Source: Escherichia coli 042 | GTDB taxonomy: Bacteria > Pseudomonadota > Gammaproteobacteria > Enterobacterales > Enterobacteriaceae | DNA length: 64,000 bases | Direction: 5' to 3' (one strand) | Assembly: GCF_000027125.1 (NCBI RefSeq) | Contig: NC_017626.1 | Part shown: one piece after another, positions 2,628-46,711 of the stretch | Layout of the letters: the number at the start of each line of letters is the position of its first letter | Numbering within the stretch: the stretch's first letter is position 1 | Position numbers and translations under genes: made by a program | Notes under the pieces: model-generated | Databases searched by the model: none | Seen by the model: the letters and a program-made list of their open reading frames with translations, nothing else | What the model was told of the DNA's origin: nothing

Positions 2628-4013
2628 ATGCTAAAAATCTTCAATACTCTGACACGCCAAAAAGAGGAATTTAAGCCTATTCACGCCGGGGAAGTCGGCA
2701 TGTACGTGTGTGGAATCACCGTTTACGATCTCTGTCATATCGGTCACGGGCGTACCTTTGTTGCCTTTGACGTGGTTGCGCGCTATCTGCGTTTCCTCGG
2801 CTATAAGCTGAAGTATGTGCGCAACATTACTGATATCGACGACAAAATCATCAAACGCGCCAATGAAAATGGCGAAAGCTTTGTGGCGCTGGTGGATCGC
2901 ATGATTGCCGAAATGCACAAAGATTTTGATGCTTTGAACATTCTGCGCCCGGATATGGAGCCGCGCGCGACGCACCATATCGCAGAAATTATTGAACTCA
3001 CTGAACAACTGATCGCCAAAGGTCACGCTTATGTGGCGGACAACGGCGACGTGATGTTTGACGTACCGACCGATCCGACATATGGCGTGCTGTCGCGTCA
3101 GGATCTCGACCAGCTGCAGGCCGGCGCGCGCGTTGACGTGGTCGACGACAAACGCAACCCGATGGACTTCGTTCTGTGGAAGATGTCGAAAGAGGGCGAA
3201 CCGAGCTGGCCGTCGCCGTGGGGCGCGGGCCGTCCAGGCTGGCACATTGAATGTTCGGCAATGAACTGCAAGCAGCTGGGTAACCACTTTGATATCCACG
3301 GCGGCGGTTCTGACCTGATGTTCCCACACCACGAAAACGAAATCGCTCAGTCCACCTGTGCTCATGATGGCCAGTATGTGAACTACTGGATGCACTCGGG
3401 GATGGTGATGGTTGACCGCGAGAAGATGTCCAAATCGCTGGGTAACTTCTTTACCGTGCGCGATGTGCTGAAATACTACGACGCGGAAACCGTGCGTTAC
3501 TTCCTGATGTCGGGCCACTATCGCAGCCAGCTTAACTATAGCGAAGAGAACCTGAAGCAGGCGCGTGCGGCGCTGGAGCGTCTCTACACTGCGCTGCGCG
3601 GCACAGATAAAACCGTTGCGCCTGCCGGTGGCGAAGCGTTTGAAGCGCGCTTTATTGAAGCGATGGACGACGATTTCAACACCCCGGAAGCCTATTCCGT
3701 GCTGTTTGATATGGCGCGTGAAGTGAACCGTCTGAAAGCAGAAGATATGGCAGCGGCGAATGCAATGGCATCTCACCTGCGTAAACTTTCCGCTGTATTG
3801 GGCCTGCTGGAGCAAGAACCGGAAGCGTTCCTGCAAAGCGGCGCGCAGGCAGACGACAGCGAAGTGGCTGAGATTGAAGCGTTAATTCAACAGCGTCTGG
3901 ATGCCCGTAAAGCGAAAGACTGGGCGGCGGCAGATGCGGCGCGTGACCGTCTTAACGAGATGGGGATCGTGCTGGAAGATGGCCCGCAAGGGACCACCTG
4001 GCGTCGTAAGTAA
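2628..4013 (+). CDS. cysS: cysteine--tRNA ligase
   Basis: 461 aa ORF with class I aaRS HIGH motif (CHIGHGR) and KMSKS motif. Confidence 0.95.
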
Positions 4014-4023
4014 TTGCGCTATT

Positions 4024-4050
4024 GCCGGATGCGAGTTTTCGCATCCGGTT
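4024..4050. terminator. GC-rich hairpin between convergent cysS and ybcI (possible bidirectional terminator)
   Basis: Inverted repeat gccggatgcg...cgcatccgg read directly from sequence; coordinates approximate. Confidence 0.4.
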
Positions 4051-4570
4051 ATCGTCTGCGCCACCACAACATTCCCATCAGTAGCATCCCCGGCAACCAC
4101 ACCCACATCAATTCAGAAATAATCACCTGATGCCCGTACGGCGTGGTGTAACGAGACAATGCAAACGGCGCGACTTTAATCACCTGCCAGGGAGCGAAAA
4201 AGCGTTCATCTGACCACGGCCACAGCCAGCCAACGCCCTTACCACCAGTGGTTACCGCATCCAGCAAGCTGTGCGATAACAACGAGACGGTTAAAAACAG
4301 CCAGCAGCGAATCAGCCCAGCCCTGAACCATCGACGTCCAATCAGCACACATAACAGCGGGACAACAAACGCAAACACCAGCGAATGGGTAAACCCGCGA
4401 TGACCAAAAACATTGCCGTAAGCAACGCCAAATTTAAACGACAATACGTCGGCATCGGGCAGCATCGCCAGGATGATTCCGGCAAATAACAGGCGCGGAG
4501 GGATGACTTTCGAACCCAACCCTAAAGCAATGCAAAGGGGAACGGCTGCGTGCGTAATAACGGTTGGCAT
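4049..4570 (-). CDS. ybcI: inner membrane protein YbcI (DUF457 family)
   Basis: 173 aa hydrophobic ORF in conserved position after cysS. Confidence 0.85.
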   Translation of the reverse strand: MPTVITHAAVPLCIALGLGSKVIPPRLLFAGIILAMLPDADVLSFKFGVAYGNVFGHRGFTHSLVFAFVVPLLCVLIGRRWFRAGLIRCWLFLTVSLLSHSLLDAVTTGGKGVGWLWPWSDERFFAPWQVIKVAPFALSRYTTPYGHQVIISELMWVWLPGMLLMGMLWWRRR

Positions 4571-12746: not shown

Positions 12747-12823
12747 GCGCCCTTAGCTCAGTTGGATAGAGCAACGACCTTCTAAGTCGTGGGCCGCAGG
12801 TTCGAATCCTGCAGGGCGCGCCA
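12747..12823 (+). tRNA. argU: tRNA-Arg (anticodon UCU)
   Basis: 77 nt sequence gcgcccttagctcagttggatagagcaacgaccttctaagtcg...ttcgaatcctgcagggcgcgcca with acceptor stem, D-loop, UCU anticodon loop, T-loop and CCA. Confidence 0.9.
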
Positions 12824-12868
12824 TTTCTTCTTCATTTATCCCCGTCTTATCCGTTTCCGCTTTGCCCT

Positions 12869-13630
12869 TCACCACATCACTTTTTGTCGCTGTTTGGCGA
12901 GATAATTCAACGGTGTCAGGCCGTAAAACGCCTTAAAAACAGAGATAAAGTACGACGTGCTGCTATAGCCACATAATTGCGCTACCTGAGTGATATTTTT
13001 GTTATCCATCAATAACATCTGTACGGCGTAACGCATACGACACTCTGTGACAATCTGGCTATAGCTGGTATTTTCGTTTTTTAATTTCTTTTTGAGCAGG
13101 CTGGGGCTTAAACATAGCGAACTGGCGACAATTCGCAGATTCCAGTAATGCTGAATATCGCTTTGAATAATGCGGCAGACGCTGTCGCGGACGCTGCTGC
13201 GTAAGATATACATCAGTAGGGCAATAAACCGCGATTGCTCAAGAAAGTTAGACAATACGGTAAAAAGCAATGCGCGCGTCAACTCCGCTTCGCAGGGTTT
13301 GCTGGGTTGCTGCTTGCTGTGGTTGGCGGCTAGCCGGAACACTTCCGGTGTACGGCTATGACAAGCGATAACCGGGGTTGCCAGCCGCGACCAGGGCTTT
13401 ACACAGGTTAAGTTCTTATTTAAAAACAACAGATAATCGTTGATGATGTTGCGGTTGATGTGGGTGATTAATACGTGATTTAACGTTGAGAGTTCAATGA
13501 CGTTATTGTTGCACGCGAAGGCGGCCAGGTAATTTTTCGGAAGGGTAAACGTGGCATGGTTATTGACGCTTACCTCTACCTCTTTTTCGGTCAGGATCAC
13601 CACGCAAGGTTCACTGCTGCTCAATTGCAT
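12869..13630 (-). CDS. envY: AraC-family transcriptional regulator, EnvY-like
   Basis: 253 aa ORF with C-terminal AraC-type HTH; length and position upstream of ybcH-nfrA match envY. Confidence 0.75.
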   Translation of the reverse strand: MQLSSSEPCVVILTEKEVEVSVNNHATFTLPKNYLAAFACNNNVIELSTLNHVLITHINRNIINDYLLFLNKNLTCVKPWSRLATPVIACHSRTPEVFRLAANHSKQQPSKPCEAELTRALLFTVLSNFLEQSRFIALLMYILRSSVRDSVCRIIQSDIQHYWNLRIVASSLCLSPSLLKKKLKNENTSYSQIVTECRMRYAVQMLLMDNKNITQVAQLCGYSSTSYFISVFKAFYGLTPLNYLAKQRQKVMW

Positions 13631-19900: not shown

Positions 19901-20236
19901 ACAAAAACCTTACATTAACGCTGGTTATGTTTAGGGTGGCGTATATTAAGGTTTTTTATGAATTGTGACAGCTTTTTACCATTAATAGGTATGACTATTG
20001 CGGCACGTTATTTTTACACTGGTTATAAAAGTTGCCGTTTGCGTAGAATGTAGACAAAAGCGTGGTGTCAAGGAGGGGCGGTAAACGTCATAGTGAAGAG
20101 GAGTGGTGGCACCGATCAGGTCATCATGTAGTGTAAGCGTCTGGAGGAGGTGAGCAGGGGAGATCATTTTCCCCGTGCTGAACAAAAAGACGGCGTTGCT
20201 GTGGGTACAGGAAGGCTAACTTCATTTCTCTTTAGA

Positions 20237-20773
20237 TTATTTAAGTTTAATATTCAACCAGGAAATAAAGAACGTTAAAATAACAAAGGAAAAAACAATC
20301 AAAGAGACATTCCTGAAAAATACGTGCTCATAAAAAAGATAAAAAACGTACAAAATTGGGCACGCAACTTTCAGGACGTTTATATGTTTAGAATTCTCTT
20401 TATCTTTAAAGTTAAAATTACATAAAAATATAAAGAAATATGAAAGCATGGCTGAAAACATCATTGATAAGGCGCGATATGGCAGTCCTGAATTAAAGGT
20501 TTCGACTCCTAATAATATTGTCGATAGCGTTGCAATTATAATTGCCACTTTTTTACTAGAGGTGAAAGTAACGACAAAAAATATCAATGATATAAATAAG
20601 AAAGAAAAAAATATGTAAATATTTGTTGATATATGTACTTTATGAGGAACTGTAAAATAGGTATAACTGATTGTAATTATGATGGTAATTATTCTGTATA
20701 GCATGCATGCTAACAGGCCAATCAGTAGTTTGTTCGCAAATTTATAAGGGGATTCGCTATTGGTTGATTGCAT
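20237..20773 (-). CDS. hypothetical multi-pass membrane protein (low GC, island-borne)
   Basis: 178 aa ORF dominated by I/L/F/V stretches consistent with ~5 TM helices; strongly AT-rich codon usage unlike flanking core genes. Confidence 0.6.
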   Translation of the reverse strand: MQSTNSESPYKFANKLLIGLLACMLYRIITIIITISYTYFTVPHKVHISTNIYIFFSFLFISLIFFVVTFTSSKKVAIIIATLSTILLGVETFNSGLPYRALSMMFSAMLSYFFIFLCNFNFKDKENSKHINVLKVACPILYVFYLFYEHVFFRNVSLIVFSFVILTFFISWLNIKLK

Positions 20774-20837
20774 GGTTATTATGCTCTTGAATTGTGTATT
20801 TTATTGGAATGTTTCTTGGTTAACTAAAACAATGCAT

Positions 20838-21266
20838 TTAATAGGTGGTGGTGTAAATATCAATGTCATACTCATTATCACAGACTACTATTACTCTACG
20901 AGTTATGTCAAAAAATAACGTTAAATCATAGGTTCCCTGTTCTCTGAAAATACTCTGCGCAAATGACGTGAAATTATTCCCATTTATAACTATTTTTACT
21001 TTACCTTCATAGATAAGCCAGCAACGAAAACATTCAGCTGTACCAGATAATGTCACTATCTGACTGATTAGAAGATTTATATTTACCGGATGAGGTAAAA
21101 AAAGTCTGTCGTTGAGGCAATCAATATTATGTGTTTGATGAAACTCTTTTCTCATTAATGAAGAGTTATCATATAGCAGGGTTATACTAAACGAGTCAAT
21201 TCCGTCAAGCTTTTGCATAAATTTGTTTGCTTTATAAATAAGCAACTTTGCTTGTGTTTTTGTCAT
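20838..21266 (-). CDS. hypothetical protein (island-borne, candidate orphan immunity protein)
   Basis: 142 aa ORF, AT-rich, tightly spaced with neighbours on the same strand. Confidence 0.5.
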   Translation of the reverse strand: MTKTQAKLLIYKANKFMQKLDGIDSFSITLLYDNSSLMRKEFHQTHNIDCLNDRLFLPHPVNINLLISQIVTLSGTAECFRCWLIYEGKVKIVINGNNFTSFAQSIFREQGTYDLTLFFDITRRVIVVCDNEYDIDIYTTTY

Positions 21267-21293
21267 GATGGTGATCTTTTATGCAAGGGGGAA

Positions 21294-21740
21294 TTATTGG
21301 AATTCAAATGTTTTATATTCCTCTGTAATCATCTTTAAACTTAACATAGCCATGTCTCGGGTATCTTCATCATCAGATTGTAGAGAAATATTTAATCCTT
21401 TAATTAAGGTGTTATCGGGAAAAGCCATTGCCAATAATGTATACCAACATCGGACACTTTTTATTGTCAGAGGATTTTCCAGTATGTTGGCGATATTTGA
21501 AGCTATAATGTTTTTATCACACTTGTACAAAAAATCTTCGACCAACTGATATACACCGAAGCCATCACCTTCCCCAAACGATTGTAAAAATAACGGTATG
21601 GCTTCTTCAGCAGGATTTGCAGAAAAATAAAGCCTTACATTGTTATATTTATTGATAAGTTCCTGAGTGATGTCATAATCATTTGGCATAGGTTGGTTTA
21701 GAGCAAGGAATGCTAATGCTTCTTTTTTAGTCATATTCAT
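21294..21740 (-). CDS. hypothetical protein (island-borne, candidate orphan immunity protein)
   Basis: 148 aa ORF, AT-rich, 27 bp from upstream and downstream ORFs. Confidence 0.5.
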   Translation of the reverse strand: MNMTKKEALAFLALNQPMPNDYDITQELINKYNNVRLYFSANPAEEAIPLFLQSFGEGDGFGVYQLVEDFLYKCDKNIIASNIANILENPLTIKSVRCWYTLLAMAFPDNTLIKGLNISLQSDDEDTRDMAMLSLKMITEEYKTFEFQ

Positions 21741-21767
21741 AATGGTTAATATTGCTTGCTGGAAGAA

Positions 21768-22313
21768 TTAAGGTAAAAATGGTTCATAGACAGAATTAAA
21801 TAGGAAGTCTTGTTTCCAGATAACTTTATCATGAAAAAGAGATTTGGCTTGATGCGTATAAAGATTATGAGGATAAATAGTTTCTCCACCATAAATGATG
21901 TTCTTTCCCGTTACACCGGAGAATTCATTGGCTATAATCTGTCGTTTAAGCCAGTGAATGACTTTACATAAGCATATTAATTTATCCTTAGAATCAGTTG
22001 TGTTAATTTCAGTAAGTTGTAAAATCTTTTCCCCATTATACTCAACTAAATGCCCCGGCTTTATTTCAATTCAACCACAATAACGATCAATGCTACTAAA
22101 CTTTATTCTTCTATTGTTAGGTTTAATGCTGGGCATAAGATAAATTCGATGTGCTACGGCAGGGATCTTTTCTGTTAAGACATTTAATTGCTTAGAGTAT
22201 TCATCTTGTAGTGTAAACCAAATTGAATGTAATTTGTATTTTGAGGCTACAATCGCGAGCCAATTAGACAGTTCCTCGTTCGTGCAAAAAACATTTATCC
22301 TGGCAGTTGCCAT
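21768..22313 (-). pseudogene. hypothetical gene interrupted by an in-frame TGA (80-codon ORF plus ~100 stop-free codons in the same frame)
   Basis: ORF 22071..22313 ends at TGA; manual translation of the same frame continues IEIKPGHLVEYNGEKILQ...SVYEPFLP to a TAA at ~21768 with no start codon, which is unlikely by chance in AT-rich DNA. Confidence 0.4.
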
Positions 22314-22346
22314 TCGTAATCCTTTTTATATAAGATTGTGTGAATG

Positions 22347-22556
22347 TCACCGAAACAACTTGATATGAATAAAATAGCTAAAGCGAAATGGATGACGTGT
22401 TACTAAAAAACCATTCTGAAAAGGAAGCCTGAATAAACGCGATGACGAAACTTCCACTCTCCATGTTTCATCAGAAAAATAACTAAATTCGATGTGGTTT
22501 TCATATAATCTCATTTCACGTAAGGTTCCGCTACCATAAGGGACCGCAATCAGGGA
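22347..22556 (-). pseudogene. short remnant ORF abutting the H-repeat end (possible truncated toxin-tip coding sequence)
   Basis: 78-aa ORF 22347..22583 whose 5' end lies inside the H-rpt terminus; the equivalent position next to H-rpt copy 2 holds a toxin-domain fragment. Confidence 0.25.
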
Positions 22557-31196: not shown

Positions 31197-31564
31197 TTTC
31201 TTGTTGGATATTTGCTACGGGGCATTCTTTATATTAATTTTTCTTCCTTATGGAGTATCTCTGTTTGACACTTTAAAGTCTCTATGAGAATTATAAGATT
31301 TTTTTTAAAATAATACGTTTTCAGATTTAGCAACAGGATTTTCACTCATACGATTAATATACGATATTTTAATCTCAAAAATATATTTGGCTGGTGAAGC
31401 TATCTGGGGTGTATATTCACACCACATATATTATCAAAAGGCAGTTACGCTACCGCCATACCCTGATAAAACTCACCATCTGCACGAAACGGATTTTACG
31501 CTTTTTCTTCCGGCGAAATATCAAATTCTCAATTCAAATAATATCTATTGCGTTATATGACCTA

Positions 31565-33013
31565 TCACTCCCTCTCCGGCAGCACAATCACAAACCTTGT
31601 TCCTCGCGCATCTGACGTTACCGCAACTGTGCCTTTATGCGCGACAACAATCGATTTCACTATCGCCAGCCCAATGCCGCTACCTTCGCCTTTTCGCTGG
31701 CGGGAAGGATCAACGCGGTAGAAACGGTCAAACAATCGCGGTAAGTGTTCGGGCGCAATGGGCGTACCGGGGTTTTCGACGGTAACTTGCACCTGATGAT
31801 CGACCGCCTGGCAGCGTACTACAATAGCCTCTCCGGGTGGCGTATAACGCAGGGCATTAGAAAGCAGGTTGTTTAACGCCCGACGCAGCATCAGAGGATC
31901 GCCCGCAACCTGACATTCGTCGCCAACAAACCGCAGCACCACGCCACGATCTTCCGCTAATGCCTCGAAAAAATCGAACACTTTGCCGACTTCATCCGCC
32001 AGGTTGAGCATTTTCTTTTCGGGGATTAACTGGTTGTTATCGGCCTGGGCGAGAAACAACATATCGCTGACCATTTTCGCCATTCGCGTCAGCTCTTCGA
32101 GATTAGAGTAGAGCACATCTTCCAGCTCCTTCTGGCTGCGCGACTGGCTGAGGGCGATTTCCGTTTGCGTTATGAGATTCGTAATCGGTGTACGAATTTC
32201 GTGAGCGATGTCCGCTGAGAAATTGGACTGGCGGGTAAAGACATCCTCAATACGCTCGATCATGTGGTTGAACGACAGTACCAGCTGTTCCAGCTCAATG
32301 GGCACGGTCTGCGGGTCAAGGCGAACGTCGAGATCTTTCGAGGTGATATTCTGGATTTGACGGCTGACGCTGCGGATCGGTGCGTGACCTTTATGTACCG
32401 CCAACAGCACGATAAAGACGATCAGGATGCTGATGATCGATGCGGTCATAATAAGTTTATTCATCAAATCATTTATGTAATGAAGATGAAAATCGATCGA
32501 AAGCGCAATGTAGAGCGTATAAATCGGTTTGCCGTCCACCAGTGGGCCAACCGGCAAGCTAATCATCCGCCAGTTGCTGTGTTCCATATGCCCGTGACCG
32601 TGGCCCGGCATCATAATCGTCGGGCCGGAAAGGAGATACACCTCGCCGCCCCGCGCGTCTTTATCGGGTATGGCATCACGTGCAAACTCGCGGATATCGG
32701 GCGCGTCGGGGGAGTGATACACCGTTTTACCGTGGCTATCTGCCAGGGAGATCAACACATTGGAATAACCACTGACAATATCTTCCAGCGTCATTAAGCG
32801 TCGGGCTTGCGTTTCGTCAGGGTGATTAAGTACCCGTTCAAGTGTGGCGCTAATCTCTTTTAAATCATTAATATCCTGCTCGGCAAAATGCACTTTTACC
32901 GAGTGGATCATGATCCAGGCAAAGGCGAAAAACGCCGCAATGGTGGCCAGGCTGATAAAAAAGGTCAGGCGGGTTGCCAGCGAAAACGGGCGCTGAAATG
33001 GCTTACTGACCAT
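31565..33013 (-). CDS. cusS: copper/silver sensor histidine kinase CusS
   Basis: ORF 31565..33025 trimmed to [19 protein letters not shown] start; HAMP, HisKA and ATPase regions; partner of cusR. Confidence 0.92.
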
Positions 33014-33686
33014 CCGGCACCTCAAGCATGTAACCCACGCCGCGCACGGTCTGAATCAACTTTGGTTCAAAATCATTGTCGATTTTGCCGCGTAGCCGCT
33101 TCACCGCCACATCAATAGCGTTAGTGTCGCTGTCGAAATTCATGTCCCACACCTGCGAGGCGATAAGCGAGCGGGGCAGCACTTCGCCTTGATGGCGGAG
33201 GAAAAACTCCAGCAGAGTAAATTCTTTACTGGTCAGAGTGATGCGCGTGCCGCTGCGGGTGACTTTGCGGCTAACGAGATCGACCATCAAATCGGCAACC
33301 TGAAACTGACTTTCGATAATCACCGCCGCTCCGCGCCGTAGTAGGGTGCGCACCCGCGCCAGCAGTTCAGCAAAAGCGAACGGCTTCACCAGGTAGTCAT
33401 CGGCCCCCAACTCCAGCCCCTTGACGCGATGTTCAATGGTGCCAAGCGCGGTAAGCAACAGAATCGGCATTCCTTTATTGGCGGAGCGCAACATGCGCAC
33501 GATATCCCAGCCGTTCACGTCCGGCAGCATAATATCGAGGATTATCAGATCATAATCACCGGTCATCGCCAGATGGTAGCCATTCAGCCCGTTGTCGGCC
33601 AAATCGACTACAAAACCGGCTTCGGTTAACCCTTTGGTCAAGTATTCTCCGGTTTTCTTTTCATCTTCGACAATCAACAGTTTCAT
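33003..33686 (-). CDS. cusR: copper/silver response regulator CusR (OmpR family)
   Basis: 227 aa [19 protein letters not shown]..., receiver plus winged-helix domain. Confidence 0.93.
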
Positions 33687-33751
33687 ATTTCCTCCGCATG
33701 TTGCCCGGGCAATTCTAGAGTAGCGGGATCAGATGGCAATCGCTTATTGGC

Positions 33752-33773
33752 AAAATGACAATTTTGTCATTTT
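33752..33773. promoter_or_regulatory. CusR-box palindrome in the divergent cusR-cusC promoter region
   Basis: Perfect palindrome aaaatgacaattttgtcatttt between cusR and cusC; matches the known CusR box. Confidence 0.6.
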
Positions 33774-33842
33774 CCTGTCACCGGAAAATCAGAGCCTGGC
33801 GAGTAAAGTTGGCGGCATAAAATCACCAGAAATTATGAGCCT

Positions 33843-35225
33843 ATGTCTCCTTGTAAACTTCTGCCATTTTGTGTGGCCCTTGCGCTAACCGGTTGTTCAC
33901 TGGCACCGGATTATCAGCGTCCGGCAATGCCCGTGCCGCAGCAGTTCTCACTCAACCAGAACGGCCTGGTTAACGCAGCGGATAACTACCAGAACGCGGG
34001 CTGGCGCACCTTTTTTGTTGATAATCAGGTGAAGACGCTGATTAGCGAGGCGCTGGTGAATAACCGGGATTTGCGCATGGCGACGCTGAAAGTGCAGGAG
34101 GCACGGGCGCAATATCGTCTGACCGATGCTGACCGCTACCCACAGCTCAGTGGCGAGGGCAGCGGCAGCTGGAGCGGCAATCTTAAAGGCGATTCAGCCA
34201 CGACGCGGGAGTTCTCGACCGGCCTTAACGCCAGCTTTGATCTCGATTTTTTCGGTCGCTTAAAGAACATGAGCGAAGCCGAACGACAAAATTATTTAGC
34301 CACTGAGGAAGCTCAGCGCGCGGTGCATATTCTGCTGGTTTCTAATGTCGCGCAAAGCTATTTCAATCAGCAGCTGGCGTATGCGCAATTGCAAATAGCC
34401 GAAGAAACGCTGCGTAATTATCAGCAGTCATATGCGTTTGTCGAAAAACAACTGTTGACCGGTAGCAGCAATGTTCTGGCGCTGGAACAGGCTCGCGGGG
34501 TGATTGAAAGTACCCGCAGCGACATCGCTAAACGTCAGGGGGAACTGGCGCAGGCGAATAATGCATTGCAACTGTTATTGGGAAGCTACGGCAAGCTGCC
34601 GCAAGCGCAGACAGTAAACAGCGACAGCCTGCAAAGCGTTAAATTACCGGCGGGCTTGTCGTCGCAAATCTTATTGCAGCGCCCTGATATTATGGAAGCT
34701 GAACACGCGTTAATGGCGGCTAATGCCAATATTGGTGCTGCGCGTGCGGCATTTTTCCCGTCTATCAGCCTGACCAGCGGAATATCAACCGCCAGCAGCG
34801 ATCTGTCGTCATTATTTAACGCCAGCAGCGGGATGTGGAATTTTATCCCTAAAATTGAGATCCCCATTTTTAATGCCGGACGCAACCAGGCCAATCTGGA
34901 TATCGCCGAAATTCGCCAGCAGCAGTCGGTGGTGAATTATGAACAGAAAATCCAGAACGCCTTTAAAGAAGTGGCAGATGCGCTGGCATTACGTCAAACC
35001 CTGAACGATCAAATCAGCGCCCAGCAGCGTTATCTGGCGTCGCTGCAAATTACCTTGCAACGGGCGCGGGCATTATATCAGCACGGCGCAGTCAGTTATC
35101 TGGAAGTGCTGGATGCTGAACGTTCTTTATTTGCAACCCGACAAACTTTACTTGACCTGAATTATGCCCGTCAGGTTAACGAAATTTCTTTATATACCGC
35201 ACTTGGTGGCGGTTGGCAGCAATAA
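33843..35225 (+). CDS. cusC: outer membrane efflux channel CusC (TolC family lipoprotein)
   Basis: 460 aa ORF with lipoprotein signal (LTGCSLAP) and OMF family sequence. Confidence 0.92.
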   Translation: MSPCKLLPFCVALALTGCSLAPDYQRPAMPVPQQFSLNQNGLVNAADNYQNAGWRTFFVDNQVKTLISEALVNNRDLRMATLKVQEARAQYRLTDADRYPQLSGEGSGSWSGNLKGDSATTREFSTGLNASFDLDFFGRLKNMSEAERQNYLATEEAQRAVHILLVSNVAQSYFNQQLAYAQLQIAEETLRNYQQSYAFVEKQLLTGSSNVLALEQARGVIESTRSDIAKRQGELAQANNALQLLLGSYGKLPQAQTVNSDSLQSVKLPAGLSSQILLQRPDIMEAEHALMAANANIGAARAAFFPSISLTSGISTASSDLSSLFNASSGMWNFIPKIEIPIFNAGRNQANLDIAEIRQQQSVVNYEQKIQNAFKEVADALALRQTLNDQISAQQRYLASLQITLQRARALYQHGAVSYLEVLDAERSLFATRQTLLDLNYARQVNEISLYTALGGGWQQ

Positions 35226-35248
35226 TTTTTAACTCCAGGAGAGAATAA

Positions 35249-35581
35249 ATGAAAAAAGCACTGCAAGTCGCAATGTTCAGTCTGTTTACCGTTATTGGCT
35301 TTAATGCCCAGGCTAACGAACATCATCATGAAACCATGAGCGAAGCACAACCGCAGGTCATTAGTGCCACAGGGGTGGTAAAAGGTATTGATCTGGAAAG
35401 CAAAAAAATCACCATCCATCACGATCCGATTGCTGCCGTGAACTGGCCGGAGATGACTATGCGCTTTACCATCACTCCGCAGACGAAAATGAGTGAAATT
35501 AAAACTGGCGACAAAGTGGCGTTTAATTTTGTCCAGCAGGGCAACCTTTCTTTATTACAGGATATTAAAGTCAGCCAGTAA
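35249..35581 (+). CDS. cusF: periplasmic copper/silver-binding protein CusF
   Basis: 110 aa ORF with signal peptide and His/Met-rich metal-binding region. Confidence 0.9.
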   Translation: MKKALQVAMFSLFTVIGFNAQANEHHHETMSEAQPQVISATGVVKGIDLESKKITIHHDPIAAVNWPEMTMRFTITPQTKMSEIKTGDKVAFNFVQQGNLSLLQDIKVSQ

Positions 35582-35596
35582 CCCAGGTTTAATGAG

Positions 35597-36820
35597 ATGA
35601 AAAAAATCGCGCTTATTATCGGCAGCATGATCGCGGGCGGTATTATTTCTGCGGCAGGTTTTACCTGGTTTGCAAAGGCTGAACCGCACGCAGAAAAAAA
35701 GCCGACCGCAGAACGTAAAATTTTATTCTGGTACGACCCGATGTATCCCAATACGCGGTTCGATAAACCAGGTCAATCGCCGTTTATGGATATGGATCTG
35801 GTGCCGAAATATGCCGATGAAGAGAGTTCTGCGTCTGGTGTGCGCATTGACCCGACTCAGACGCAGAATCTGGGGGTGAAAACGGCTACCGTCACGCGCG
35901 GGCCGCTGACTTTTGCCCAGAGTTTCCCGGCGAATGTCAGTTATAACGAGTATCAGTATGCCATTGTGCAGGCCCGCGCCGCCGGGTTTATCGACAAGGT
36001 GTATCCGCTTACCGTGGGCGATAAAGTACAAAAGGGCACACCGCTTCTCGACCTGACCATTCCCGACTGGGTGGAAGCGCAGAGTGAGTATTTACTGCTG
36101 CGCGAAACCGGCGGTACGGCGACCCAGACTGAAGGCATTCTTGAGCGGCTGAGACTGGCGGGAATGCCGGAGGCGGATATTCGCCGCCTGATCGCCACGC
36201 AAAAAATCCAGACGCGCTTTACGCTCAAAGCGCCCATTGATGGCGTGATCACCGCGTTTGATCTGCGCGCGGGAATGAATATCGCCAAAGATAACGTGGT
36301 CGCGAAAATTCAGGGTATGGACCCGGTGTGGGTCACTGCTGCGATCCCGGAGTCCATCGCCTGGCTGGTGAAAGATGCCTCGCAGTTTACGCTCACCGTT
36401 CCGGCGCGACCTGATAAAACACTCACCATCCGCAAATGGACGCTGCTACCTGGCGTGGATGCCGCGACCCGCACGCTGCAGCTGCGTCTGGAAGTCGACA
36501 ACGCCGACGAGGCGCTAAAACCGGGCATGAACGCCTGGTTGCAACTCAATACCGCCAGCGAACCGATGCTGCTCATTCCGTCACAGGCGCTGATTGATAC
36601 CGGCAACGAACAGCGGGTGATTACCGTTGATGCCGACGGACGCTTTGTACCGAAACGCGTTGCCGTTTTCCAGGCATCGCAAGGCGTCACCGCGTTACGC
36701 TCTGGTCTGGCGGAAGGTGAAAAGGTGGTTTCCAGCGGCCTGTTCCTGATTGATTCCGAAGCTAATATTTCTGGCGCACTGGAGCGGATGCGCTCTGAAA
36801 GTGCTACCCATGCGCATTGA
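35597..36820 (+). CDS. cusB: membrane fusion protein CusB
   Basis: 407 aa ORF, RND adaptor family, between cusF and cusA. Confidence 0.92.
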   Translation: MKKIALIIGSMIAGGIISAAGFTWFAKAEPHAEKKPTAERKILFWYDPMYPNTRFDKPGQSPFMDMDLVPKYADEESSASGVRIDPTQTQNLGVKTATVTRGPLTFAQSFPANVSYNEYQYAIVQARAAGFIDKVYPLTVGDKVQKGTPLLDLTIPDWVEAQSEYLLLRETGGTATQTEGILERLRLAGMPEADIRRLIATQKIQTRFTLKAPIDGVITAFDLRAGMNIAKDNVVAKIQGMDPVWVTAAIPESIAWLVKDASQFTLTVPARPDKTLTIRKWTLLPGVDAATRTLQLRLEVDNADEALKPGMNAWLQLNTASEPMLLIPSQALIDTGNEQRVITVDADGRFVPKRVAVFQASQGVTALRSGLAEGEKVVSSGLFLIDSEANISGALERMRSESATHAH

Positions 36821-36831
36821 GGGAATAACCA

Positions 36832-39800
36832 ATGATTGAATGGATTATTCGTCGCTCGGTGGCGAACCGTTTTTTGGTGCTGATGGGCGCGTTGTTTCTG
36901 AGCATCTGGGGCACCTGGACCATCATTAACACGCCAGTGGATGCGCTGCCGGATCTCTCCGATGTGCAGGTGATTATTAAAACCAGCTATCCCGGTCAGG
37001 CACCGCAAATCGTTGAAAATCAGGTGACTTATCCGCTAACCACCACCATGTTGTCGGTGCCTGGCGCGAAGACTGTGCGTGGTTTCTCGCAGTTTGGCGA
37101 CTCTTATGTGTATGTCATTTTCGAAGATGGTACCGATCCGTACTGGGCGCGTTCGCGGGTGCTGGAGTACCTCAACCAGGTACAGGGTAAGCTGCCTGCG
37201 GGAGTCAGCGCCGAGCTGGGGCCAGATGCCACGGGTGTTGGCTGGATCTATGAATATGCACTGGTGGATCGCAGCGGTAAGCACGATCTGGCCGATTTAC
37301 GCTCATTGCAGGACTGGTTTCTCAAATATGAGCTGAAAACCATCCCTGACGTTGCGGAAGTGGCGTCGGTAGGCGGTGTGGTGAAAGAGTATCAGGTGGT
37401 TATCGATCCTCAGCGCCTGGCGCAATATGGCATCAGTCTCGCCGAAGTAAAAAGCGCGCTGGATGCTTCAAACCAGGAAGCGGGCGGTTCGTCGATCGAA
37501 CTGGCGGAAGCGGAATATATGGTGCGCGCCAGCGGCTATCTGCAAACGCTCGACGACTTTAATCACATCGTTTTAAAAGCCAGTGAAAATGGCGTGCCCG
37601 TTTATCTGCGTGATGTTGCGAAGGTCCAGATTGGCCCGGAGATGCGCCGGGGCATTGCCGAACTAAACGGCGAAGGCGAAGTGGCGGGCGGGGTGGTGAT
37701 CCTGCGCTCCGGCAAAAACGCCCGTGAAGTGATCGCCGCCGTGAAGGATAAACTGGAAACGCTGAAAAGTAGTCTGCCGGAAGGCGTGGAGATAGTTACA
37801 ACATACGATCGCAGCCAGCTCATTGACCGCGCCATCGACAACCTCAGCGGCAAGCTACTGGAAGAGTTTATTGTGGTGGCGGTAGTCTGTGCGCTGTTTC
37901 TCTGGCATGTGCGCTCGGCGCTGGTGGCGATTATTTCGTTGCCGCTGGGGTTGTGTATTGCTTTTATTGTCATGCACTTCCAGGGACTGAATGCCAATAT
38001 TATGTCGCTGGGCGGTATTGCGATTGCCGTCGGGGCGATGGTCGATGCCGCTATCGTCATGATCGAGAATGCGCATAAACGGCTGGAAGAGTGGCAGCAC
38101 CAGCATCCTGACGCCACGCTGGATAATAAAACGCGCTGGCAGGTGATCACCGATGCATCTGTTGAAGTAGGCCCGGCGCTGTTTATCAGTCTGCTGATTA
38201 TCACACTGTCGTTTATCCCGATCTTCACCCTGGAAGGGCAGGAAGGGCGTCTGTTTGGCCCGCTGGCGTTCACCAAAACGTATGCGATGGCGGGCGCGGC
38301 GCTGCTGGCGATCGTAGTGATCCCGATCCTGATGGGTTACTGGATCCGTGGCAAAATTCCGCCGGAAAGCAGTAACCCGCTCAATCGCTTTTTGATTCGT
38401 GTTTATCATCCGCTGTTGCTGAAAGTACTGCACTGGCCGAAAACCACGCTGCTGGTGGCAGCGCTTTCGGTGCTGACGGTTCTTTGGCCGCTCAATAAAG
38501 TTGGCGGGGAATTTTTACCGCAGATCAATGAAGGCGACTTGTTGTATATGCCATCGACGCTGCCGGGGATTTCCGCAGCAGAGGCGGCGAGTATGCTGCA
38601 AAAAACCGACAAGCTGATTATGAGCGTACCTGAAGTGGCGCGGGTATTTGGCAAAACCGGGAAAGCGGAAACCGCCACCGATTCTGCTCCGCTGGAGATG
38701 GTAGAAACGACCATCCAGCTTAAGCCACAGGAGCAGTGGCGGCCAGGCATGACAATGGACAAAATCATTGAGGAACTGGATAACACCGTGCGTCTGCCGG
38801 GGCTGGCGAATCTGTGGGTGCCGCCAATTCGTAACCGTATCGATATGCTCTCAACCGGCATTAAAAGCCCCATCGGCATTAAAGTTTCCGGCACTGTGCT
38901 GGCGGATATCGACGCGATGGCTGAGCAAATTGAAGAAGTGGCGCGAACGGTGCCAGGCGTGGCTTCAGCGCTTGCTGAGCGTCTGGAAGGTGGGCGCTAT
39001 ATCAACGTTGAGATTAACCGTGAAAAAGCCGCGCGTTACGGTATGACGGTGGCGGATGTGCAGTTGTTTGTGACTTCTGCGGTGGGCGGGGCGATGGTTG
39101 GCGAAACGGTGGAAGGGATTGCCCGTTATCCAATTAATCTGCGTTATCCGCAAAGCTGGCGCGATAGCCCGCAGGCGCTGCGCCAGCTACCGATCCTGAC
39201 GCCGATGAAGCAGCAAATCACCCTGGCAGACGTGGCCGACGTTAAAGTCTCTACCGGACCGTCGATGCTGAAAACCGAGAATGCGCGCCCGACGAGCTGG
39301 ATTTATATCGATGCCCGCGATCGTGACATGGTGTCGGTGGTTCACGATTTGCAAAAAGCGATAGCTGAAAAAGTGCAGTTAAAACCGGGCACCAGCGTGG
39401 CATTCTCCGGGCAGTTCGAGCTACTGGAGCGCGCCAACCATAAGCTGAAACTCATGGTGCCGATGACGTTGATGATCATCTTCGTGCTGTTGTATCTGGC
39501 GTTCCGTCGGGTGGGCGAAGCGTTGCTGATTATCAGCAGCGTACCGTTTGCGCTGGTGGGCGGCATCTGGTTGCTGTGGTGGATGGGCTTTCATCTTTCT
39601 GTGGCAACGGGCACTGGCTTTATCGCCCTTGCGGGGGTCGCCGCCGAATTTGGCGTGGTGATGCTGATGTATTTACGTCACGCCATAGAGGCCGAGCCGT
39701 CGTTGAATAATCCGCAAACATTCAGCGAGCAGAAGCTGGATGAGGCGTTATATCACGGCGCGGTCCTGCGCGTGCGCCCGAAAGCGATGACGGTGGCGGT

Positions 39801-39975
39801 GATTATCGCCGGTCTGCTGCCGATTCTGTGGGGAACAGGAGCAGGTTCAGAGGTGATGAGCCGGATTGCCGCGCCGATGATTGGCGGCATGATCACCGCG
39901 CCTTTGCTGTCGCTGTTTATTATCCCGGCGGCGTATAAGCTGATGTGGCTGCACCGACATCGGGTACGGAAATAA
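36832..39975 (+). CDS. cusA: RND heavy-metal efflux pump CusA
   Basis: 1047 aa ORF, RND permease with 12 TM segments. Confidence 0.95.
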
Positions 39976-45511: not shown

Positions 45512-45855
45512 TTATGTTGGCGTTTTCTATTCAGTATAGAAGTCGGAGCGGCTGGGCGAGATGCGGAAGTTCTGGAATGCTTCTTTTTTTTGGTGATGGT
45601 GAACTGATTGTGACTGAAGAAGTTTGGCTACTTTTGCAATGTGACAAGTTATGGCAGAGCTGGCTGGTGGCGAAGAATTTTGACGATTGAGGCATGCAGA
45701 AAAATACGGGTTCAGCTTCAGTTGATCAAATGAGGAGTGAGAAGTCCGAAACAGGACTCACTGTATAAATAAACAGCTATTTTGCTGAAGAAGGGTAAGA
45801 TAACGGCGGGTGCCTGAAGCTTTCCGGTTTCAGGTTTACTCTGAGGTCTGGAAAG

Positions 45856-46044
45856 ATGAAGCCCCAGGACGATATTTCTATCAACCCTGGGGCTGCCACT
45901 CCAAACCCAAACAATTTGGATGGTAGTCCCTTCTTCGCATGGAGGCAATATAAACATGCTGACGAAATATGCCCTTGTGGCTGTCATAGTGCTGTGTTTA
46001 ACGGTGCTGGGATTTACGCTTCTGGTCGGAGACTCGCTGTGTGA
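45856..46044 (+). CDS. mokE: mok-like overlapping reading frame of hokE copy 1
   Basis: 62-codon ORF overlapping the hok start in another frame, as in hok/mok/sok loci. Confidence 0.45.
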
Positions 46045-46108
46045 GTTTACGGTGAAGGAACGTAATATTGAGTTTAAGGCTGTTCTCGCTTACGAACCGA
46101 AGAAGTAG
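45956..46108 (+). CDS. hokE: Hok-family small membrane toxin HokE, copy 1
   Basis: [50 protein letters not shown], 50 aa, within ORF 45920..46108. Confidence 0.85.
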
Positions 46109-46243
46109 CCGTTGTGCGGGGAGTAATCCCCGCATATCCGGTTGTCAGGTCAGGGTGGTAAGGCACCTGCTTTACACTTTCGCCCGCGGTCAGCAATGGC
46201 TGCGGGCGATTTCGTTTTACGAACAATAACGAGCGTTGCCAAC

Positions 46244-46711
46244 AGAAGTCCGAAACAGGACTCGCTGTATAAATAAACAGCTATTTTGATAAGGAAGGGT
46301 AAGATAACGGCGGGTGCCTGAAGCTTTCCGGTTTCAGGTTTACTCTGAGGTCTGGAAAGATGAAGCCCCAGGAGATATTTCTATCAACCCTGGGGCTGCC
46401 ACTCCAAACCAGACAATTTGGATGGTAGTCCCTTCTTCGCATGGAGGCAATATAAACATGCTGACGAAATATGCCCTTGTGGCAGTCATAGTGCTGTGTT
46501 TAACGGTGCTGGGATTTACGCTTCTGGTCGGAGACTCGCTGTGTGAGTTTACGGTGAAGGAACGTAATATTGAGTTTAAGGCTGTTCTCGCTTACGAACC
46601 GAAGAAGTAGCCGTTGTGCGGGGAGTAATCCCCGCATATCCGGTTGTCAGGTCAGGGTGGTAAGGCACCTGCTTTACACTTTCGCCCGCGGTCAGTGATG
46701 GCTGCGGGCGA
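46244..46711 (+). repeat. hokE locus tandem duplication, copy 2
   Basis: Near-identical to copy 1 apart from two 1-bp indels in the mok leader region and a few substitutions. Confidence 0.75.
46458..46610 (+). CDS. hokE: Hok-family small membrane toxin, copy 2 (identical protein)
   Basis: Same 50 aa Hok peptide; here part of a longer in-frame ORF 46314..46610 because upstream indels merge the mok leader with the hok frame. Confidence 0.8.

Follow-up and report, generated by a model that had tools for sequence, protein, structure and literature searches.

The window analysed here, a stretch of 64 kb in its full length, is part of the E. coli chromosome and carries, in this order, purK, sfm/fimZ, argU, envY, nfrAB, the cus genes, pheP and ent/fep. 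In the cus region the regulatory genes cusRS and the efflux genes cusCFBA are arranged divergently, and all six open reading frames (cusS, R, C, F, B, A) are full length and free of internal stops. Gene identities were assigned by full-length matches to NCBIfam equivalog and subfamily models, and the RefSeq annotation of a 100%-identical stretch from E. coli strain A10 agrees with these assignments. The cus genes are:

31565–33013, minus strand: cusS, Cu(I)/Ag(I) sensor kinase, 482 aa (NF007345, 982 bits, profile positions 1–481 of 482)
33003–33686, minus strand: cusR, response regulator, 227 aa (NF007346 equivalog, 507.9 bits, full length)
33843–35225, plus strand: cusC, outer-membrane channel, 460 aa (NF007347, 900 bits, full length)
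35249–35581, plus strand: cusF, periplasmic metallochaperone, 110 aa (NF007348)
35597–36820, plus strand: cusB, membrane fusion protein, 407 aa (NF007303, full length)
36832–39975, plus strand: cusA, RND permease, 1047 aa (TIGR00914, 1667 bits, full length)

The divergent genes cusR and cusC are separated by a spacer of 156 bp with 46% G+C. An earlier note on this DNA had placed a CusR box within positions 33740–33780, in the divergent cusRS/cusCFBA promoter region. Open reading frames, NCBIfam models and RefSeq annotation agree on this setting, and the 22-mer AAAATGACAATTTTGTCATTTT indeed lies inside the interval, 65 bp from the ATG of cusR and 69 bp from the ATG of cusC:

33752–33773, no strand assigned: CusR box, AAAATGACAA-TT-TTGTCATTTT

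The two arms (33752–33761 and 33764–33773) form a perfect 10-bp inverted repeat around the non-symmetric 2-bp spacer TT, and the symmetry ends at the arm ends, without outward extension. Compared with its own reverse complement, the 22-mer differs at 2 positions. The element had been described as a perfect palindrome of 22 bp; the inverted repeat and its perfect arms are real, but with the TT centre only 20 of the 22 positions are self-complementary. The 22-mer is present as a single exact copy in the 64-kb window, where no second copy was found at ≤3 mismatches either, and 100 dinucleotide-preserving shuffles of the window yielded 0 matches (expected 0.00). Only three inverted repeats in the window combine perfect arms of 10 bp with a spacer of 0–4 bp, at a random expectation of about 0.3 (64000 × 5 / 4^10, our own arithmetic). 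The other two are located at 26869–26891 (ATGCAAAACGTCCCGTTTTGCAT, within the island described below) and at 4025–4048 (CCGGATGCGAGTTTTCGCATCCGG, GC-rich and similar to a REP element or a terminator). Regulators of the OmpR/PhoB family usually bind direct repeats, whereas the CusR box is an inverted repeat.

For the CusR site that E. coli has between cusRS and cusC(F)BA, PMC11195947 gives AAAATGACAAnnTTGTCATTTT, citing Yamamoto & Ishihama 2005. The comparison with this published recognition sequence showed agreement at 20 of the 20 specified positions and no mismatch, as the earlier note had anticipated, and no evidence contradicting the identification was encountered. Judged by sequence, 33752–33773 is thus almost certainly the CusR box of E. 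coli, the operator through which the CusS/CusR two-component system responds to copper and silver. It is a textbook operator and as such already known. By ChIP-chip a single CusR peak was reported for the genome, and it lies within the cusR/cusC spacer; in genomic SELEX unphosphorylated CusR bound this spacer only. Phosphorylated CusR activates both PcusC and PcusR, and copper induction of cusC requires CusRS. In K-12, whose box is identical, the literature has established that Cu(I) or Ag(I) in the periplasm activates the kinase CusS, that CusS phosphorylates CusR, and that phospho-CusR bound to the inverted repeat in the 156-bp spacer switches on both divergent promoters. The rightward output is the CusCFBA efflux pump and the leftward output cusRS itself, which constitutes a positive feedback loop.

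The spacer aligns without gaps to that of K-12 MG1655 and differs from it by one base, at position 33774 (C here, T in K-12), directly 3′ of the box. CusR is identical to the K-12 protein at 227 of 227 residues, and its DNA-binding domain is therefore unchanged. Identity to K-12 is also complete for CusF (110/110) and reaches 1045/1047 for CusA and 401/407 for CusB; 452 residues of CusC and 463 residues of CusS are identical, the C-terminal tail of CusS being different. The K-12 locus thus shares the 22 bases of the box including its TT centre, the 156-bp spacer, the position, CusR and the flanking operons with the window, but has T at 33774, another cusS tail and no 11.5-kb island after cusS. 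No IS element is present in the spacer of the window. With box, spacer, CusR and all cus open reading frames intact, the response to copper and silver should follow that of K-12. The earlier note had likewise expected intact regulation, a view that is backed as far as sequence data can back it: a single spacer base, outside the box, departs from K-12, CusR is unchanged, and the six open reading frames are whole.

The same control region is widespread in the species. The 22-bp box is invariant in the six diverse E. coli spacers that were aligned (K-12 included), among which both the C and the T allele of 33774 are represented. Of 5426 complete E. coli genomes, 5333 have the spacer at ≥95% identity and 5147 have the exact 34-mer 33740–33773, which contains the box. 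A naturally disrupted cus control region was observed in strain 730V1 (E. coli O19:H7; locus L005, about 3110–4220), in which an IS903B copy 46 bp 3′ of the CusR box parts the box from cusC, with ISKpn26 causing a further break within cusC. Further downstream, the gap between cusC and cusF (35225–35249) measures 23 bp in the window and 157 bp in K-12, where 127 bp of extra sequence are found. CusC has 460 aa here and 457 aa in K-12, with a different C-terminus.

On the far side of cusRS the window carries an insertion between nfrB and cusS:

20043–31586, no strand assigned: island of about 11.5 kb, absent from K-12

Its limits correspond to the breaks in the alignment of K-12 with the window, at 20042 and 31587. 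According to the annotation of the near-identical strain A10 (99.95% DNA identity to the window in the cusS region), the island encodes transposases of the ISAs1 family (including ISEc1), a SUKH-3 protein, a PAAR-like protein, two WD40/BNR-repeat paralogues and one HNH/EndoVII toxin-2 protein. The WD40/BNR-repeat paralogues are about 91% identical over 728 bp (28607–29333 vs. 29759–30485). The nfrB–cusS site looks like a variable hotspot for type VI effector/immunity genes, because other strains hold vgrG/Rhs genes at the same junction. The right junction of the island falls within the last codons of cusS (31565–31586), and for this reason the tail of CusS differs from that of K-12: CusS of the window has 482 aa and ends with VLPERE, K-12 CusS has 480 aa and ends with TLPA. 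A cusS gene for 482 aa is annotated in RefSeq for other strains as well. The distance from the box to the island is about 2.2 kb, and the spacer is untouched by it. The efflux locus for copper and silver on the chromosome has thus retained its native control region despite a variable toxin/IS island abutting cusS. Beyond annotation the significance of this is little.

A scan for the exact box, with one genome per species, retrieved 37 loci. Since these loci were found by the exact box, its invariance among them is partly given by construction and was not counted as independent evidence; this does not apply to the co-occurrence with cusR and to conservation outside the box. A CusR homologue (61–100% protein identity to CusR of the window) is encoded in 14 of the 37 loci, and in 11 of these 14 the box occupies the spacer where cusR begins. 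Among the loci concerned are three from Escherichia, one from Citrobacter koseri, seven from Providencia (five named species, one Providencia sp. MAG and P. rettgeri) and one from a Rhodocyclaceae MAG. In Providencia the box is kept beside cusR at 70% CusR identity. In the box-anchored alignment the bases GTCA at 33777–33780, which belong to a third half-site described below, do not vary across C. koseri, six Providencia species and the Rhodocyclaceae MAG. A hexamer TAnnnT follows exactly 30 nt after the box, as TAAAGT in E. coli, TAAGGT in C. koseri and TACnnT in Providencia. Outside box, half-site and hexamer the Providencia spacers are unalignable. In Shimwellia pseudoproteus (L011, 5520–5541) and Acinetobacter dispersus (L043, 1803–1824) the exact box is located just past the 3′ end of cusS, which suggests a co-directional layout of cusRS, box and target.

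Most of the remaining box loci belong to low-GC genomes and have no cus gene nearby. The exact 20-base pattern occurs in about 20 low-GC genomes or MAGs of this kind, which by our own arithmetic is about what chance yields at AT-rich composition, so that the element of the window could be thought an AT-rich palindrome or hairpin (a terminator or RNA element) without operator role. We consider this exceedingly improbable: the shuffled windows gave an expectation of zero, the box lies upstream of both transcription starts proposed below, more than 5100 E. coli genomes carry it unchanged, and it persists next to cusR in Providencia. No terminator-like site was found in the spacer, nor did the spacer give any Rfam match at E ≤ 1, and the reading as terminator or structured RNA was rejected on these grounds. 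By conservation together with the literature a chance palindrome is effectively refuted.

A second group of loci carries the pattern with a CG centre. The sequence AAAATGACAACGTTGTCATTTT adjoins genes for LacI-family regulators in a Comamonadaceae MAG, in Xylophilus sp. and in Klebsiella spallanzanii, and CG-centred copies are located at 1529–1550 of L008, 3299–3320 of L012 and 4221–4242 of L030, all in high- or mid-GC loci without cus genes nearby. A CG centre is typical of LacI-family operators, and the copies have probably arrived at this sequence by convergence, as operators of the LacI type. The element of the window might accordingly be asked to serve a LacI-family repressor, but its centre is TT instead of CG and its neighbours are cusR and cusC, no LacI-family gene flanking it. 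As neither the centre nor the neighbourhood is that of such an operator, this assignment was rejected; there is next to no likelihood in its favour. Because of the CG-centred copies beside LacI-family genes the 20-base pattern is not diagnostic by itself; it is diagnostic only in the context of cusR, the context in which the CusR box of the window stands.

The plasmid-borne silR/silC spacer was found via coding similarity and is therefore independent of the box search. It contains AAAATGACAACATTGTCATTAT, then CCTGTCACC and then TAAAGT, the latter exactly 30 nt after the box. The core TGACAAnnTTGTCA, CTGTCAC and TAAAGT are shared with the cus spacer at the same spacings, and regulator and pump genes have the same divergent layout. 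The SilR operator differs in an imperfect outer arm (TTAT instead of TTTT), in its centre CA and in the longer leader of silC. A second site resembling the CusR/SilR core, TGACATCTTTGTCA, was noticed on a sil plasmid (L046, 7207–7220) between silS and silE, upstream of silE. The HprR/CusR box at hiuH-hprR (CATTACAAAATTGTAATG), a locus outside the window, shares the inverted-repeat form and the A/T-rich centre and is a recognition site for CusR as well as for HprR, but has the half-site TTACA/TGTAA where the window has TGACA/TGTCA. A palindrome common to several OmpR-family regulators (CusR/CopR/CzcR) is known from Pseudomonas paraeruginosa (ATTCATnnATGTAAT). It is also a single site in a divergent spacer between cusR and its target and activates in both directions, and it differs in the sequence of the half-site and in its target operon, pcoA2.

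Transcription starts of cusC and cusR were derived from promoter scans in combination with conservation across genera; the biosensor papers, promoter-mapping papers and supplement examined contain no mapped coordinates for them. The proposed promoter elements are:

33804–33809, plus strand: putative cusC −10 element TAAAGT, 30 nt after the box, with a start near 33816
33712–33739, minus strand: cusR promoter-like site, −35 TTGCCA (33739–33734), 16-bp spacer, −10 TAGAAT (33717–33712)

On the cusC side no promoter was detected by the standard sigma-70 scan, and a relaxed scan returned several weak −10 candidates. Among these TAAAGT was preferred because no other candidate stands at a constant distance from the box in Citrobacter, Providencia and the sil plasmids. 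It matches TATAAT at 4 of 6 positions and has no good −35 in the relaxed scan, a lack that would fit a promoter dependent on an activator. The hexamer TAAAAT at 33818–33823 scored better and was dropped, its spacing to the box not being kept across genera. With TAAAGT as −10, the centre of the box would be positioned near −53.5 of the cusC promoter, which agrees with what we take to be the RegulonDB value. The cusR promoter-like site is the sole sigma-70-like site at the scan threshold, with 10 of 12 matches. The hexamer TAGAAT recurs on the side of cusR in C. koseri and in Providencia, in the latter 13 bp nearer to the box. From this site cusR transcription would start near 33705, and the box centre would lie near −57.5. 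It is the spacing conserved across genera that settles the probable geometry of the promoter.

The right arm of the box is at the same time part of a direct repeat:

33765–33782, plus strand: Pho-box-like direct repeat TGTCATTTTCCTGTCACC, formed by TGTCA of the right arm (33765) and a third TGTCA (33776–33780)

Its two TGTCA-type repeats are 11 bp apart, the repeat distance of a Pho box. In K-12 a PhoB site at cusR/cusC was determined by ChIP-seq as TGTCATTTTTCTGTCACC (PMC10294691), and the window sequence matches it at 17 of 18 positions. The deviating position is 33774 with C instead of T, so that the only difference of the spacer from K-12 falls into the spacer of the published PhoB direct repeat. 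With canonical Pho boxes, whose consensus resembles CTGTCATAAAACTGTCAT at pstS, the window has in common the TGTCA repeats 11 bp apart at 33765–33782. It differs from them in that the repeat coincides with the CusR box at the right arm only, carries one substitution relative to K-12 and, by the geometry proposed above, would lie farther upstream from the −10 by roughly one turn of the helix.

Under phosphate limitation the deletion of phoB lowered cusC from 208 to 50 expression units, an approximately 4-fold drop (PMC10294691), and PhoB had been placed at cusR/cusC before by ChIP-chip, reporters and EMSA. For HprR the highest peak in genomic SELEX is the cusR/cusC spacer. On these data the site could be regarded as mainly a PhoB (Pho box) or HprR operator in vivo with CusR in a secondary role, which we hold to be very unlikely: PhoB and HprR represent extra inputs and not alternatives, the copper response of cusC depends on CusRS, the sole CusR peak in ChIP-chip is found in this spacer, and the full 10+10 box co-occurs with cusR homologues across genera. 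Nevertheless, since HprR and PhoB sites are published for the same spacer, the operator region is common to the three response regulators CusR, HprR and PhoB and not exclusive to CusR. In K-12, through the binding of HprR and PhoB to the spacer, peroxide/HOCl and phosphate-starvation signals reach the cus promoters in addition to the copper/silver signal transmitted by CusR.

In the proposed geometry the third TGTCA half-site (33776–33780) would cover positions −40 to −36, in place of the missing −35. A half-site over a missing −35 is typical of an activator-dependent promoter of the OmpR/PhoB family. On the cusR side no third half-site was seen in the box-anchored alignments read, an asymmetry which therefore favours cusC. 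One may tentatively ask whether the operator is larger than the textbook box of 22 bp and extends as TGACA-N4-TGTCA-N6-TGTCA over 33756–33780, the proximal half-site being needed by CusR/SilR and not by PhoB alone; we regard this as possible, with the odds rather against it. If it were true, C or T at 33774 could tune the induction of the pump by phosphate starvation or copper between E. coli lineages. The layout of three half-sites at a fixed spacing to the −10 and the lone polymorphism within the published PhoB site are mildly new.

Apart from the cus locus and the island, two further features of the window were recorded. At 12747–12900 a tRNA-Arg gene (anticodon TCT, the argU position) is directly followed by envY, and the cryptic prophage DLP12 of K-12 is absent here. 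A tandem duplication of about 470 bp with 98% identity (45740–46209 and 46244–46711) carries hokE, and in a near-identical strain two hokE copies are annotated at this duplication.
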